DNA of 31,115 nucleotides from Candidatus Lloydbacteria bacterium RIFCSPHIGHO2_02_FULL_50_18 (GCA_001821395.1 MHLM01000008.1:1-31115), one strand, 5' to 3'. Counted from the stretch's first letter, positions 9,149-16,891 are shown. The notes: generated by a model not told the origin, from the letters alone. Translations and numbers: made by a program.

Positions 9149-9706
9149 CTATGAGACGATGTCCTCTTGAAGGAGGGGTATCGAAGCAAGTATCGTATAG
9201 CCGACTCCCCCTTGTTCAGGTGACAAAAAAAGCTGCACAGCATCGACGGTCATACTGAATTCGACGCGCTGCGCTATGTGGTGCGGCATGGATCGCTCTT
9301 GATCGTCTTTAGCACATCGGGCAATAGTGATATGGGGAATGAATGGCCGATGTTCCGGTATATCAAAAGCATCTGCAAGTATTCGCTCCAATGCAACGAG
9401 CTCGGGACTTGCCGCACATTCAATCCAGAGCAGTTTCGGACTATCATTATTCGGGCCACAGGCAAGACGATCGAGAGTAAGTGAAAACGGTTTTGTATTA
9501 CGAAGAGCGTCTTGCAACCGTTGAATGACCGCCCTTTCATCTGTGGTATTCCATGGGGTAACGAGCGTGAGGTGCATGTCCTCGGAAGGTATGAGCCGCA
9601 CATGCTCTCCCGCGACACAGGACTGCAATGCCGCACAATACTCCGCAAGAGGAGTGGAAACCTTGATACCCACGAATACACGCTTTGATAGTTTTTCGGT
9701 GTCCAT
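9149..9706 (-). CDS. 2H-phosphoesterase superfamily protein (RNA 2',3'-cyclic phosphodiesterase / 2'-5' RNA ligase LigT/ThpR-like)
   Basis: Two H-x-T/S-x motifs at the expected spacing (HLTLV and HITIAR) in a 185-aa protein. The overlapping 193-aa ORF 9274-9855 in another frame is Cys/Ser/Arg-rich and looks non-coding. Confidence 0.7.
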   Translation of the reverse strand: MDTEKLSKRVFVGIKVSTPLAEYCAALQSCVAGEHVRLIPSEDMHLTLVTPWNTTDERAVIQRLQDALRNTKPFSLTLDRLACGPNNDSPKLLWIECAASPELVALERILADAFDIPEHRPFIPHITIARCAKDDQERSMPHHIAQRVEFSMTVDAVQLFLSPEQGGVGYTILASIPLLQEDIVS

Positions 9707-9845
9707 ATATCTCTATGATAGCAGAGAATATATTTGTATTCTATTCGACTCTTTGCTGCTTTCGAGCGAAGCGATGTTTTTATGCTGCGCAATAAAGAAC
9801 TCGCCCATGGAGGCGAGTTGCACGAGTAAAAACACAATTCTTGCT

Positions 9846-10196
9846 TCAATTCCATTCCTCTGTAGACACATCAAAATGAGTTATTGCGGTCTTTTCAGTA
9901 AGCCCACTTTCTACAAAAAATTTTTTGTAGTACTCAAGTCCAAGCGTCATTGCCGAAAATTCCGTTTCAGCATCCACTCGATATATCACCTTGGTAGCCG
10001 AACCGGTAACGGTAATGAGTGATCCATGAAATCTAAAAAATCGAGGGAATACGATGGAATCTGGTTTGACCGAACAATGGCTAAGCGGCTCGATGAAATC
10101 GCTAAACTTATACTGCTCAAGCAATTCTGGTTCACAACCGAGACGACTCTGAATAACAAGAGTGACCTTCCACTCACGGAATTGGGGAGAAGACAT
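9846..10196 (-). CDS. Hypothetical protein (116 aa), immediately upstream of the 2H-phosphoesterase gene
   Basis: Strong SD (AAGGAG 6 nt before the ATG) on the minus strand. Composition is protein-like. The overlapping ORFs in other frames lack a comparable RBS. Confidence 0.5.
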   Translation of the reverse strand: MSSPQFREWKVTLVIQSRLGCEPELLEQYKFSDFIEPLSHCSVKPDSIVFPRFFRFHGSLITVTGSATKVIYRVDAETEFSAMTLGLEYYKKFFVESGLTEKTAITHFDVSTEEWN

Positions 10197-10487
10197 GATG
10201 AGCTCCTTAAGTAGATGTTAAAGAAAAAGGCGTGAACACAAAGGTCCTCTTTCATATTGGCATTAATCTCATACCTGTCAAGCAACGAATCGTTCACAGG
10301 GTATCTTCGAGATTGCTGTGTATGCCACACCCCTTCATCTTAAACCCCGGGGTGATGCAGAGGTATTGAAACAATGCAATACAAAAACCCGATGCATTGC
10401 ATCAGACTTTAAATTATTTGTGAGCCTCGAGGCAGCGGATTGGAACCTGTTGATACGGGAGCTTAAAGATTGGGCGGGGTTGGGGGG

Positions 10488-10515
10488 TTGACAAAACAGT
10501 ATGCCAGTGTATGAT
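10488..10515 (+). promoter_or_regulatory. Sigma70-like promoter (TTGACA-16-TATGAT), copy 1 of a repeated GGTTGACAAAACAG promoter module
   Basis: ggggGGTTGACAaaacagtatgccagtgTATGATact. The same -35 module recurs at 11077. Confidence 0.5.
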
Positions 10516-10566
10516 ACTATACAGTTTGCAGAGTTTCCAATCAGTTCCCATTAACAGGAGATGTAA

Positions 10567-10920
10567 ATGCTTAGTCGCTATCTCGCCCTCACCATCGCCG
10601 TTGGAGCGTCCATCCTCACCACCTCGGTCAGCGCAGGAAGTTCGACAAATAACGATGCTGGGGATCGCAGTTCGCCATATTCCGCAGACCTCATCTTCAA
10701 GATCAATGATGCGCATGTCACGTATCGCACCGACGGACACATGCTTGTGTGCATTAATAAGAAGAAAAAAGGGACGGAGTCGTGCGATGACTCGAGTGGC
10801 AAATTGACACTGGAAGAATTCTGGAAATTGTATTTTCCAGATGCTCCTAGTACGTTGCGCGTAGTCGCAATGGATTACAGGACGTACTACTCGACCTACA
10901 TCTTCTGGCTCAAGCGATAG
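10567..10920 (+). CDS. Small secreted protein (117 aa) with signal peptide
   Basis: RBS aacAGGAGatgtaaATG. Signal-like N-terminus MLSRYLALTIAVGASILTTSVSAGS. Two Cys. Confidence 0.6.
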   Translation: MLSRYLALTIAVGASILTTSVSAGSSTNNDAGDRSSPYSADLIFKINDAHVTYRTDGHMLVCINKKKKGTESCDDSSGKLTLEEFWKLYFPDAPSTLRVVAMDYRTYYSTYIFWLKR

Positions 10921-10942
10921 CCACACATTCACCCATCGAACG

Positions 10943-10977
10943 AACCAGCCTCTAAAACGGCTGGTTCATTTTTATTT
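10943..10977 (+). terminator. Rho-independent terminator followed by the ATTTGTGAC boundary motif
   Basis: gaaccagcc-tctaaaac-ggctggttc hairpin followed by atttttatttgtgaccc. Confidence 0.6.
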
Positions 10978-11078
10978 GTGACCCTAACGGGAAGAATTTG
11001 GAATCAGGTGTATGGGGAGATGATTTTGGTTGAGAGGTGGGATGTTACACTTACTTGTTGAACCCAGAATTGGGGAGG

Positions 11079-11109
11079 TTGACAAAACAGTTCACTTTTT
11101 ATTAAATAA
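11079..11109 (+). promoter_or_regulatory. Sigma70-like promoter, copy 2 of the GGTTGACAAAACAG module
   Basis: gggGAGGTTGACAaaacagttcactttttatTAAATAat. The -10 assignment is ambiguous (TATTAA or TAAATA). Confidence 0.4.
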
Positions 11110-11140
11110 TCTCAGATTGCGATTCATGCGGGAGATAGGA

Positions 11141-11296
11141 ATGAAGACGTACATTATCATCGGTGCAGTGTTCGGCCTTGTTGGAGTGACCGCACGCTTG
11201 CTAGGTGTCCATTTGAATTCTTGGATGTGGGGGGTGGGGGTAGGGTTTGCGGCAGCCCTGATTGTTGGTTACATCAAAAACAGAAAAAAGGGATAG
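11141..11296 (+). CDS. 51-aa hydrophobic two-helix peptide with basic C-terminus (small membrane protein; type I toxin-like architecture)
   Basis: Internal ATG of the 88-aa track ORF with RBS gGGAGataggaATG. Sequence is MKTYIIIGAVFGLVGVTARLLGVHLNSWMWGVGVGFAAALIVGYIKNRKKG. The upstream part of the track ORF is promoter sequence. Confidence 0.5.
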   Translation: MKTYIIIGAVFGLVGVTARLLGVHLNSWMWGVGVGFAAALIVGYIKNRKKG

Positions 11297-12346
11297 GTGC
11301 ACAATCGTCAGTGATGGCGATTTTTTATTTGTGACTCTACAGAGAATTTCGCTCCCTACTGGAGCAGTGCGCCTTTGCGATTTACTCTGAATAAGAATTC
11401 TTCGTAAATAACACAAAGCCCTTCGATTCTCTGGCGAAAAGCAAGCAGTTGCTTTTCTTAAGGTCACAGACAAAAATGGCCACGCTTTCGCATGACTCAT
11501 TTTTGTTGCTGTGACCTTACAGAGAATCGGGGTCAACTCACATCAATATTTTATTCGTGCGGACACTCCAAAATATTGTGTGGTTCCTCCCCGGACTCGG
11601 CAACGCCCATCGACAGGCTCAGGGCGGCTTCGCGCCTCCGTCTTTCGATCATCTGCAAGGGCCCGGCAAATACTAAAAGCCCGATGCATTGCATCGGACT
11701 TAAAGTATTTGTGACCTTACAGAGAATCGAACTCTGATTTAAGCCTTGAGAAGGCTTCGTCCTAACCGTTAGACGATAAGGCCAATACGTAGTTGTGATA
11801 ATAACATTGAGTTCGATTCTATGGAACTCTGATTTCCGCCCTACTGGCGCAGTACACCTTTTCGATTTTTAAGAAAAAACCTGAAAAGGTCTTGTGAAGT
11901 GGGTCCCATCCCACTTCTCACCTTTCGAAGGCTTCGTCTCCCTAAAGGGACTTCCATTTTCTAAAACGGAATACCGTTAAGAAAATTTGATCGCTAACCG
12001 TTAGACGATAAGGCCAATACGTAGTTGTGATAATAACATTGAGTTCGATTCTATGGAACTCTGATTTCCTCCCTACAAACGGCAGCGAGGAGAAAAGGAA
12101 GCTCGCTTACTTTTTATCCGAGTGAACCGTTCGTATGTTTCATACAGGAGCTGTTCCCGATTGATTATCCGAGACCGTTCTCCCTGCCTGCGCAGGCAGG
12201 CGATAAGGCCAATGGACAGACAGCACTTTTAATCGAACTTCAAAAGAATAGCGAATTTGAGCCTATTTGTCTACCTCAAGGTTGACAATATTGAATATTC
12301 GTGTAGAATGGGAAATGAAGCAAGTCTTCGTATAAGGAGTTAGTTA
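11297..12346. repeat. ~1 kb ORF-free mosaic repeat region (modular direct and inverted repeats, many hairpins); candidate structured-RNA array or decayed cassette/MITE cluster
   Basis: There are three copies of ATTTGTGAC(C/T)(C/T)TACAGAGAAT at 11328, 11507 and 11709. A 76-bp perfect direct repeat occurs at 11762-11837 and 11994-12069. An inverted repeat pairs 11458-11478 with 11498-11519. There is a perfect 18-bp palindrome cctgcctgcgcaggcagg at about 12183-12200. A third partial copy gcgataaggccaat sits at 12199. Hairpin CTCC-CTACT-GGAG co-varies with CGCC-CTACT-GGCG. Confidence 0.7.
12279..12306 (+). promoter_or_regulatory. Strong sigma70-like promoter (TTGACA-16-TAGAAT)
   Basis: aagGTTGACAatattgaatattcgtgTAGAATggg, 40 nt upstream of the ATG at 12347. 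Confidence 0.55.
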
Positions 12347-12676
12347 ATGAAAAAAACACATCAACCCCGTTGGGAAGATGAATTTCGTGCACTCGTGCAC
12401 GAAGAGATAAAGAGAGAGATTACCGGTCAGAAAAAGCTGAATTCAGCTATCATCTGGTCAAGGAACCCTCTTTCTTTTGTTGATTCGGAGTCGAATAAAA
12501 AACTTCATGATTGCTGGAAATTCTTTCCTGATTGGCTGAAGAGGTATGACAGTACTTCGAGGAAGGGGTCGCTCGGTAGGTCGTGGGGGGCTCTTGTTGG
12601 CAGTACAAAGAAAAAAATTGCACTGGCATTCAAGAATCACTCTTCTCGACAACTGGGCGCAACGCCAAGAAAATAA
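12347..12676 (+). CDS. Hypothetical basic cytoplasmic protein (109 aa)
   Basis: Excellent RBS (tAAGGAGttagttaATG). No TM segment and no recognisable domain. Confidence 0.55.
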   Translation: MKKTHQPRWEDEFRALVHEEIKREITGQKKLNSAIIWSRNPLSFVDSESNKKLHDCWKFFPDWLKRYDSTSRKGSLGRSWGALVGSTKKKIALAFKNHSSRQLGATPRK

Positions 12677-12710
12677 ATTCGTTCTTTTCACAACATACAT
12701 AGGAGCCATA

Positions 12711-13151
12711 TTGAAATCAGCTGATAGTAAGACGCAGGCACACCCACGCAAGAAAGATCGCGAGACCTGTCTTCCGGAAAACTTTCCGCAGATCACCGCT
12801 CACGACGTGATCGACCGCACAAAGGTCTTCATTCTCGTCGTGCGCGGATTCGTCGGCGCACAGATCTTGATCGGGCCGTTTCAGGTCATCGGATCGCCAA
12901 AGCTGATCGCACACATGCCCCCATTTTGCGGGCACTACCGATTACGCGTGAGGATGATTGCTACCGATACGGAACAGTGCATCGTCGTGCCGACGGACGG
13001 ATTCGCGCAGATCTATGGAATGCAATACAGCCTGCACGAGTATCTCCCTCAAGCGAAAAAATATTTCGAACAATTCGACGCGAACGCGATCGCACTCGCG
13101 TCGATATTTCATTCTCAAGAGGCACGGAATAAGAACAAATATCTCAAATAA
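12711..13151 (+). CDS. Hypothetical protein (~146 aa) probably starting at TTG; second gene of a two-gene operon
   Basis: AGGAG sits 5 nt upstream of an in-frame TTG at 12711, directly after the stop of the preceding gene. The alternative ATG at 12546 would overlap that gene by 130 nt and adds an R/G-rich, non-protein-like N-terminus. Confidence 0.45.
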   Translation: MKSADSKTQAHPRKKDRETCLPENFPQITAHDVIDRTKVFILVVRGFVGAQILIGPFQVIGSPKLIAHMPPFCGHYRLRVRMIATDTEQCIVVPTDGFAQIYGMQYSLHEYLPQAKKYFEQFDANAIALASIFHSQEARNKNKYLK

Positions 13152-13162
13152 ATAGCTTATGC

Positions 13163-13192
13163 ATACCGCCTCTCACGAGGCGGTTTTTTTAT
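13163..13192 (+). terminator. Rho-independent terminator
   Basis: ccgcctc-tcac-gaggcgg hairpin followed by ttttttt. Confidence 0.65.
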
Positions 13193-16670: not shown

Positions 16671-16891
16671 GATAATCAGGCCATGAATCTTATACGCTCA
16701 CGAATAATGAAGAACCGTCCGCGGCGAGGAGCGGTAGATTTTACAAAACGAGAACGAACCGCAATGGGCACATAGCGGTCTATCGTAGCACGATAGGTGA
16801 TCAGTAATTTAGTCATAGTGTAAGGAACGATGATCCTCTGTTGAAATGGCGTTCAAAGAGAAACATTGGCATGATAAAACTTGATAAACTT

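Follow-up and report, generated by a model that had tools for sequence, protein, structure and literature searches.

Small cassettes and tRNA-mimicking structured units beside copies of a tRNA-Glu 3' end in a Candidatus Lloydbacteria genome

We analysed a contig of 31,115 nucleotides from Candidatus Lloydbacteria bacterium RIFCSPHIGHO2_02_FULL_50_18 (MHLM01000008.1; the whole contig is referred to as the window), in which a tRNA-Glu gene is accompanied by displaced copies of its own 3' end, by structured non-coding units derived from it, and by small cassettes. Genomes of Patescibacteria are tiny and believed to be poor in mobile elements, and little is understood of how accessory genes are gained and lost in this phylum. 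A preliminary description had read the interval before murF as an islet of small-gene cassettes, each bounded by a promoter and a terminator. Discrete units do lie between copies of a boundary motif, as that description held, but the ~900 bp from 11326 to 12213 are tRNA-Glu-derived structured non-coding units (named A, B, D and S1) and not small-gene cassettes. Loci used for comparison are given as L numbers, and the features of the window are collected in Table 1.

A tRNA-Glu gene and displaced copies of its 3' end

The minus strand carries an intact tRNA-Glu gene with anticodon CTC, which is called by ARAGORN and scores 61.5 bits against Rfam family RF00005 (gathering score 29). On this strand, GGTCAC|AAAT is the 3' strand of the tRNA-Glu acceptor followed by the first bases of the trailer, and ATTTGTGAC is its reverse complement. 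The boundary motif, at first taken for a module that follows terminators, is the 3' end and trailer of tRNA-Glu read backwards; the tRNA gene on the minus strand had been missed. All tRNA-Glu-derived fragments detected by blastn-short lie inside 10383-12240 of the window, and the GC content of the tRNA-fragment region is 0.41-0.47 versus 0.50-0.56 in its flanks.

Following the tRNA strand, unit A (12210 to 12056) and unit B (12018 to 11824) precede the tRNA, which is followed by S1 (11710 to 11530), the fragment F1, a terminator hairpin, unit D (whose 3' strand is the fragment F2), the ORF51 unit, F3, ORF117, and a 108-bp leader that contains F4. The open reading frames (ORFs) of 51 and 117 amino acids, ORF51 and ORF117, are both directed towards tRNA-Glu. 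The array recurs, collinear and at 99.8-100% identity, in 15 independent contigs of this population that come from several samples and assemblers, and it is therefore no product of misassembly.

With at most one mismatch allowed, TATTTGTGAC matches five times in 31 kb, against 1.79 expected for the whole window, and four of the five matches are on the plus strand within 1.3 kb (10415-11715). The five boundary copies align as a T-run followed by ATTTGTGACCYTACAGAGAAT. Their tRNA-derived part is best kept in F1 and F2, nearest the tRNA, and most degenerate in the outermost copies, F3 and F4. A perfect 20-nt direct repeat (11730-11711 and 11529-11510) spans the T loop to the 3' end (tRNA positions 55-73), and further degenerate copies of the tRNA 3' end are found at 11347-11326, 10983-10973 and 10423-10383. 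The duplicated hairpin block noticed earlier is also present: a hairpin followed by TTTGTGA at 10383-10423 recurs 1.3 kb away at 11671-11711 with 90% identity over 41 nt. A minus-strand terminator (11496-11479) follows F1, and in L136 and L138 the same hairpin directly follows the intact tRNA. F3 is a degenerate tRNA-Glu 3' end that aligns with the 3' end of a second D-type unit (D2) in L136.

Cassettes inserted at the boundary site

Comparison with related loci shows that S1, the ORF51 unit and the 108-bp leader are each an insertion relative to relatives, located exactly at a GGTCAC|AAAT site, and that the S1 and ORF51 cassettes have relocated. In L136 and L138 no S1 separates the tRNA from unit D; in the window it is cleanly inserted there (~200 bp), flanked by the 20-nt direct repeat. 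A copy with 95.7% identity over 211 nt occurs at L142 1277-1487, where it directly follows the terminator of the ORF117 ortholog and is itself followed by GTATTTGTGACCCTAC and a new leader module; the ORF117 region of the two loci is only 80% identical. The ORF51 unit matches L146 144-493 (90.9% over 351 nt) with different flanks on both sides. In L146, which comes from the same sample as L142, the DNA to the left of the unit is unrelated, and to the right lie TTTATTTGTGACCC, another leader and a different ORF. The cassette copies in L142 and L146 are bounded by the same GTGACC site and have other neighbours. In the window, the ORF51 cassette takes the place of unit D2 of L136.

The 108-bp leader is absent from the close ortholog locus in L142, where positions 734-786 correspond to window 10321-10373 and positions 792-1286 to window 10482-10986, with 5 nt between them. 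The ORF cassettes share a leader of ~100 nt with the pattern G(G/A)A(T/A)TTGGAAYC ... TTGGGG..TTGACAAAA, and the T-run of their terminator abuts the site. Neither the leaders nor the ends of the ORF51 and ORF117 units show folding (z score +0.5 to +1.5). The interval from the tRNA to ORF117 measures 0.56 kb, 0.8 kb, 1.1 kb and 3 kb in relatives. L023 is an independent case: at its tRNA-Glu(CTC), two genes, one pyrophosphatase-like and one for an ASCH protein, lie between the tRNA 3' end and a GGGGTCAC repeat, which starts the D unit of that locus. The proposed shuffling of cassettes therefore stands in part: at least S1 and ORF51 behave as movable cassettes, with copies elsewhere, and the interval varies between relatives, but it is invariant in the 15 population contigs, which show no ongoing shuffling. 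Miniature inverted-repeat transposable elements were considered and rejected; terminal inverted repeats are missing from the cassettes, of which the window contains one copy each.

Structured units derived from tRNA-Glu

In unit B, tRNA positions 1-22 are separated from positions 23-40 by a 55-nt insert; a three-helix motif (11828-11944) comes next, followed by positions 44-55, and positions 56-73 are absent. A unit B assembled in the same way, its 34-nt 5' copy being exact, occurs in L136; it lies behind the promoter region found in L138 ahead of the intact tRNA. Unit B would therefore mark the old position of the gene, the intact copy having been restored by the insert. An 83-nt direct repeat, made up of the unit B tail (AAATCAGAGTTC), a 40-nt spacer and tRNA positions 1-22, connects each unit's tail with the 5' end of whatever follows, be it another unit or the tRNA itself. 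Within the spacer, TTCCAT-17-TATTAT may be a promoter-like site.

The 55-nt insert of unit B, at the D-loop position, contains a hairpin of its own (AAATTTTCTTAACGGTATTCCGTTTTAGAAAAT; 11957-11995, minus strand). An analogous insert of 105 nt is present in the D loop of a disrupted tRNA-Phe copy in L090.

Unit D combines a 9-bp pseudo-acceptor stem (GTGACCTTA/TAGAGTCAC), a hairpin whose loop reads ACUGC, an extended T stem of 8 bp (CAGAGAAT/ATTCTCTG) and a degenerate copy of the three-helix motif, which the motif covariance model matches weakly at 11343-11467. The unit lies beside tRNA-Glu in five loci, across which 25 of its 48 base pairs show compensatory changes; none of 500 shuffles reaches this score. 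Its closing helices track the tRNA-Glu of each genome (CTGTAAGG, CTGTGAGG, CTGTAGGG or CCCGTGGGG). S1 folds at -87 kcal/mol (z -7.2), with a closing helix that uses its own tRNA-like 3' end. Both units are long imperfect palindromes whose stems carry the sequences of both tRNA gene strands between T loop and 3' end, and both also fold well as DNA (z -5.7). The structured units may act either as RNA or as folded DNA.

Table 1. Positions of the principal features of the array and of the adjoining genes
Feature	Position	Strand	Evidence or content
ORF117-upstream insertion, 108 bp	10374-10481		Copy of the tRNA-Glu trailer terminator and last tRNA bases (F4, 10376-10424), then leader module (GGATTGGAACC...); lies upstream of the ORF117 promoter
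ORF117 promoter (predicted)	10482-10515	+	Module GGGGGGTTGACAAAACAGT, TTGACA-16-TATGAT; promoter scan 11/12
ORF117, small secreted protein (predicted)	10567-10920	+	Signal peptide, two conserved Cys, invariant C-terminal motif MDYRTYYSTYIFWLKR
ORF117 terminator, then F3 (TTTTTATTTGTGACCCTA)	10942-10985	+	Terminator scan; repeat family D2; L136 alignment
ORF51 cassette, ~350 bp	10986-11335	+	Leader module (GAATTTGGAATC), promoter module 11073-11091, ORF 11141-11296, terminator 11303-11322, TATTTGTGAC 11326-11335
Unit D, tRNA-Glu-mimicking structured unit, 3' strand = F2	11326-11472	-	Conserved in L136, L138/L139, L132, L023
F1, direct 20-nt copy of tRNA positions 55-73 (11529-11510), then terminator hairpin and inverted acceptor 3' strand	11459-11529	-	100% over 20 nt; inverted repeat I3
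S1 cassette, ~200 bp, GC-rich structured body	11510-11720	-	Starts with tRNA terminator hairpin, ends with its own tRNA 3' 20-mer
tRNA-Glu (anticodon CTC)	11711-11783	-	ARAGORN; Rfam RF00005
83-nt direct repeat D1	11762-11844 (copy 1); 11994-12076 (copy 2)	-	99% identical
Unit B, disrupted tRNA-Glu copy, broken in the T loop	11824-12018	-	blastn-short fragments; covariance model 97 bits, E 3e-23
Unit A, older, more degenerate tRNA-Glu-derived unit	12056-12210	-	5' 10 nt GGCCTTATCG and tail ...GTAGGGAGGAAATCAGAGTTC kept; blastn-short matches 12213-12201 and 12067-12056; repeat families D3, D4
Two-gene unit, resident	12282-13184	+	Promoter 12282-12309, ORF109 12347-12676, ORF146 12711-13151, terminator 13165-13184

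A family of three-helix motifs beside tRNA genes

The three-helix motif of unit B is ~100 nt long and has the build GGGUGAG-P1-CGCAAG-ACCUUUUGAG..CCAAAAGGU-GUAC-P3, with a GUA loop. A pattern of its 22-base core matches at least 119 metagenome contigs (L002, L017-L135), and viral contigs yielded neither the motif core nor the pattern of boundary plus module. Pairing across the three helices reaches 95.7% in a set of 81 non-redundant copies, whereas shuffles give 77% and slid partners 39-57%; compensatory changes occur in 10/10 pairs of P1 and P3, and G-U pairs clearly outnumber the A-C mismatches expected from a fold of the opposite strand. The conserved junction sequences suggest a tertiary structure in RNA or the binding of a protein. 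When the window, L002 and 13 motif loci were searched against Rfam 15 by gathering score and by E-value, neither the motif nor unit D nor S1 matched a family, and we found no description in the literature of the motif or of such cassettes.

About a quarter of the motif copies have a tRNA within 400 nt. The motif lies on the strand of the neighbouring tRNA in 27 of 32 such pairs, and in 12 of the 32 its flanks contain an exact match of at least 11 nt to that tRNA, compared with 0.3% of control segments. Two arrangements recur. In the downstream build, found with tRNAs for Gly, Pro, Trp, Lys and Ile, the tRNA is followed by an inverted T-loop piece, the motif and a direct copy running from the T loop to the 3' end; tRNA-Glu has this build in the form of unit D. 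In the upstream build (Leu, Gly, Ile and Ser), the motif lies within a 5' tRNA copy that precedes the intact gene. Insertion points within tRNA copies vary (positions 9, 19, 34-40 and 47), and ARAGORN, with introns allowed, found no intron-bearing tRNA around the motif.

Several divergent copies are present per locus in L115 (4076-7880), L033 (7058-7290), L020 (291-7259) and L023 (1378-2465), and the motif family is therefore multi-copy within genomes. The copies are in tandem in L033, and in L115 they are interleaved, on the same strand, with tRNA-Arg, tRNA-Leu and tRNA-Val. LOOT RNA (Rfam RF03000) lies ~150 nt downstream of one motif copy and tmRNA genes (transfer-messenger RNA) ~350 nt upstream of two others (L022 1418-1539; L089 1-225; L053 7-143).

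All-against-all clustering of the ORFs that flank the motif gave no constant protein partner. The best candidate is a large serine recombinase, present at 7 of ~115 loci. In L057 (4081-6215) and L052 (4119-5473) this gene overlaps the 3' end of an opposite-strand tRNA (Leu or Gln), with the motif 260-430 nt upstream of its start, as if an element had integrated next to a tRNA. These two recombinase loci, which belong to another lineage and serve as a lead only, showed no displaced tRNA fragments.

Promoters, terminators and small open reading frames

The reused promoter module of the preliminary description, GGG(G/A)GGTTGACAAAACAGT, was recovered as exactly two copies of 19 nt (10482-10500 and 11073-11091), with none expected in shuffles, and so was the strong third promoter, TTGACA-16-TAGAAT at 12282-12309. 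The latter and TTGACA-16-TATGAT at 10488-10515 are sigma-70-like and each score 11/12 in the promoter scan. A promoter for each unit had been proposed; this holds for ORF117 and for the pair of 109- and 146-amino-acid ORFs, but ORF51 has a perfect -35 and a weak -10 element that the scan did not call. Plus-strand terminators are found at 10942-10967, 11303-11322 and 13165-13184. The claimed succession of terminator and boundary motif is seen in the ORF117 and ORF51 units and not behind the 109+146 pair, where TTTTTTTATCTCAATAC follows the terminator and the boundary motif is absent. All four ORFs exist as described, and none of them has a Pfam domain.

ORF117 has 14 homologs at 48-99% identity, in which the two Cys are invariant. 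In three other Lloydbacteria-type loci (L136, L138/L139 and L145) the homolog lies 0.56-3 kb from tRNA-Glu(CTC), and in two of the three the tRNA-Glu also adjoins murF, as in the window. GGGAGGTTGACAAA is also found upstream of the closest ortholog, in L142, and is therefore the native promoter of ORF117. The core of an AlphaFold2 model of the protein has a predicted local distance difference test score (pLDDT) of ~90, and the model gave no fold match in the PDB. Judged from its conservation, ORF117 is a real, constrained gene that is resident in the Lloydbacteria lineage rather than cargo. The 109+146 pair is likewise resident and lies outside the array: a homologous pair (107 and 173 amino acids) adjoins murF in L001, whose MurF is 82% identical, and a 131-amino-acid gene stands at the same position in L138. 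Since ORF117 and the pair are kept beside the same neighbours in relatives, they are not the exchangeable cargo that the small ORFs had been taken to be.

ORF146 and ORF51 have almost no homologs. ORF51 encodes a 51-amino-acid peptide with two transmembrane segments, its sole protein homolog is a 94% variant, and it has a weak match to a PHROG holin (E 0.002). It could be a small toxin or holin-like peptide, or no gene at all.

The interval between the ORF117 homolog and tRNA-Glu differs between two related assemblies, L138 (7962-10676) and L139 (7962-10701): in L139 a pilin-like N_methyl protein of 542 amino acids and a 58-amino-acid ORF are called, and in L138 no genes are called across 2.7 kb. 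To the left of the array in the window, low GC (0.41-0.45) extends over 9700-10380, which includes an orphan ORF of 116 amino acids (9846-10196, minus strand) without Pfam or PHROG match, and left of ~10320 the flank of ORF117 is not alignable with L142. The final codons of the 116-amino-acid ORF (9846-9875, minus strand) are GTGTCTACAGAGGAATGGAATTGAAGC, which weakly resembles an inverted boundary with leader module (GTGACTCTACAGAG.. / GAATGGAATC) and may be the outer edge of the variable region. Elsewhere in the window, a small conserved ORF (16680-16820, minus strand; MTKLLITYRATIDRYVPIAVRSRF...) sits between rsmH and an ftsL-like gene of the dcw cluster; its counterpart in L002 (MKKLMITYRATIDHHVPIAVRSRP..., 1225-1360) has a motif copy just upstream.

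Origin of the array

An intact tRNA gene with copies of its T loop to 3' end that delimit stacked insertions is the pattern which site-specific integration into tRNA genes leaves (Islander, PMC4383910). For this reason we favour, at roughly even probability, trans-acting site-specific recombination at sites resembling tRNA 3' ends, with tandem accretion of mini-islets. The tRNA-Glu(CTC) locus would be a landing site for very small DNA segments. Since the tRNA and each downstream unit end in GGTCAC|AAAT, several copies of one site would be available, and the structured units would multiply them. Short segments such as S1, the ORF51 cassette and the 108-bp leader would insert exactly at these copies, each bringing a more or less degenerate tRNA 3' end; the incoming DNA would restore the gene and push the old end outward, and repeated events would leave a stack of displaced ends behind one gene. 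Because the 31-kb contig encodes no recombinase, the enzyme would have to act in trans. We infer both the order of these events and the involvement of a recombinase rather than homologous exchange.

Several observations weigh against recombination of this kind. As the preliminary description also had it, no ORF of the contig has an integrase or recombinase domain, and no such enzyme could be linked to this genome. In size, the units fall short of typical tRNA islands by a factor of 10 to 100. Relatives keep ORF117 beside the tRNA, yet it lies between two boundary copies, so a boundary need not indicate inserted foreign DNA. Two of the copies are more than displaced ends: F2 functions as the 3' strand of unit D, and F3 probably occupied the equivalent place in a unit D2 since lost. 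The order in L142 could have arisen from a window-like one by a deletion between F3 and F1. Finally, the 15 population contigs include no excision or empty-site variant.

The same array might have arisen without any dedicated recombinase, from tandem tRNA-Glu-derived repeats of 10-80 nt rearranged by homologous or illegitimate recombination, gene conversion and slippage, the cassettes being whatever DNA lies between repeats. We consider this possible, though well short of probable. The 83-nt repeat, at 99% identity, resembles the outcome of unequal crossing-over or gene conversion, fragments identical to the tRNA of each genome indicate concerted evolution, the order of ORF117 and S1 in L142 can be derived by the F3-F1 deletion, and the array is stable in the population. 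Most of the repeats are just 10-20 nt long, however, and the precise insertions contribute new sequence (S1, the 108-bp leader and the ORF51 unit), which goes beyond rearrangement; the DNA left of the ORF51 cassette in L146 is unrelated, and between populations S1 is 96% identical where the adjacent gene is 80% identical. A more doubtful proposal is an RNA operon, in which units B, D and S1 are co-transcribed with tRNA-Glu to give small RNAs of tRNA-like form and with minihelix-type ends, GGTCAC|AAAT is a site of RNA 3' processing unrelated to DNA mobility, and the small ORFs are ordinary convergent neighbours. It draws on the strong compensatory covariation of unit D and of the motif (95.7% against 77% in shuffles), on the excess of G-U pairs over A-C mismatches, on the shared strand of motif and tRNA in 27 of 32 cases and their interleaving in L115, and on the position of the L136 unit B behind the native tRNA promoter. 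It leaves unexplained the insertion of S1, ORF51 and the 108-bp leader at the site and their recurrence elsewhere, and a terminator separates the tRNA from unit D in all three of three genomes. An RNA role of the units is compatible with the recombination that we favour.

An integron-like platform, with the tRNA 3' end as attI, the folded hairpins of D and S1 as attC-like sites and a distant integrase, would account for the palindromes whose stems span the T loop to the 3' end of the tRNA, fold as DNA and co-vary with the host tRNA, and for cassettes that are small and carry single genes. We nevertheless regard it as improbable, as the ORF-bearing cassettes have no hairpin site (z +0.5 to +1.5) and carry their own promoters, there is no IntI on the contig and no GTTRRRY core at the site, and the conserved motif junctions suggest RNA tertiary structure or protein binding. 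The integron-like character first ascribed to the islet fails on the same grounds: neither IntI nor attI on the contig, a boundary other than GTTRRRY, leaders without attC-like folds, and internal promoters. That the shared modules are a chance likeness of ordinary promoter and terminator consensus has next to no probability. TTGACA boxes and T-runs are generic, and the region contains 6 promoter-like sites against a shuffle mean of 4.7, but the 19-nt module is observed twice with none expected, the boundary copies are clustered and extend into tRNA sequence, and other genomes keep a homologous architecture. Chance consensus is refuted by the tRNA-derived fragments, the module count and the boundary clustering.

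Beyond site-specific accretion at the tRNA, we entertain, as a rather unlikely extension, that the tRNA-coupled structured elements, with the three-helix motif as core and scaffolds copied from the 5' part (upstream) or the T-stem-to-acceptor duplex (downstream) of the adjacent tRNA, are a new Patescibacteria class that multiplies the 3'-end site and serves as a platform for the capture and exchange of tiny promoter-bearing cassettes, with the recombinase encoded elsewhere, in effect a tRNA-anchored functional analogue of the integron. The interest of the locus lies in gene-sized and smaller cassettes that are exchanged at copies of a tRNA 3' end with no recombinase nearby, and in a widespread, covarying structured element that occurs on at least 119 metagenome contigs, in several copies in some genomes, and is tailored to the adjoining tRNA. 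This structured-element family is the more novel by-product of the analysis. If its members are RNAs, they would form a new family of tRNA mimics in a phylum of unusual tRNA biology; if they are DNA sites, they would form a new kind of recombination platform.

Comparison with known systems

Group I introns have been reported in Patescibacteria tRNA genes (PMC13011429). Like the motif, they are structured RNA-like insertions in or near the anticodon loop of Patescibacteria tRNAs that escape standard annotation. The motif differs in its length of ~100 nt, in the lack of a complete 3' exon in the interrupted copy and in the intact tRNA alongside. A group I intron in the tRNA was rejected because of incomplete exons and because Intron_gpI gave no match, either in 10200-12400 (E<=10) or in the 13 motif loci (E<=1).

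Integrons share part of the architecture. The criteria applied were IntI with adjacent attI and Pc, an attC palindrome with RYYYAAC/GTTRRRY cores, and promoterless cassettes. Small, mostly single-gene units stand head to tail at one conserved short site, their order and content differ between related genomes, and D and S1 are imperfect palindromes. Unlike in integrons, there is no IntI/attI/Pc platform on the contig, the site is a tRNA 3' end and not GTTRRRY, and the ORF cassettes have no foldable attC and carry their own promoter and terminator, whereas integron cassettes are generally promoterless and driven by Pc. The pdif modules of Acinetobacter depend on XerC/D, and a Xer/dif site is 28 bp long with XerC and XerD arms and a 6-bp spacer. 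These modules too are small gene units between short conserved sites, in varying contexts and without a dedicated recombinase nearby; in the present array no XerC or XerD half-sites are evident by eye, and the setting is a chromosomal tRNA locus rather than a plasmid.

CIME-like elements (cis-mobilizable elements) are bounded by att sites, lack an integrase and are mobilised in trans by the integrase of a related element. The window likewise has bounding sites and no integrase on the contig, and the relocation of S1 and ORF51 between populations fits such a system. Islander-type tRNA islands share with the array an intact tRNA gene with direct copies of its 3' part at segment ends, break points in the T loop and at the 3' end (the classical sublocation), and several segments stacked behind one tRNA, with content that varies between relatives. 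S1, absent in L136 and L138, is an insert delimited by the intact tRNA and a displaced 3' copy, as in such islands; the integrase gene expected inside an island is not found on the 31-kb contig or near the segments. These differ further in measuring 0.1-0.55 kb rather than several kb or more, several of the displaced ends are built into conserved structured units, and the upstream units restore the 5' half of the tRNA, not the 3' half. Overall, the array most resembles tandem mini-islets without an integrase at a tRNA gene, and not an integron. What is unusual is that conserved structured units, which mimic tRNA and belong to a family outside Rfam 15, incorporate the tRNA end.

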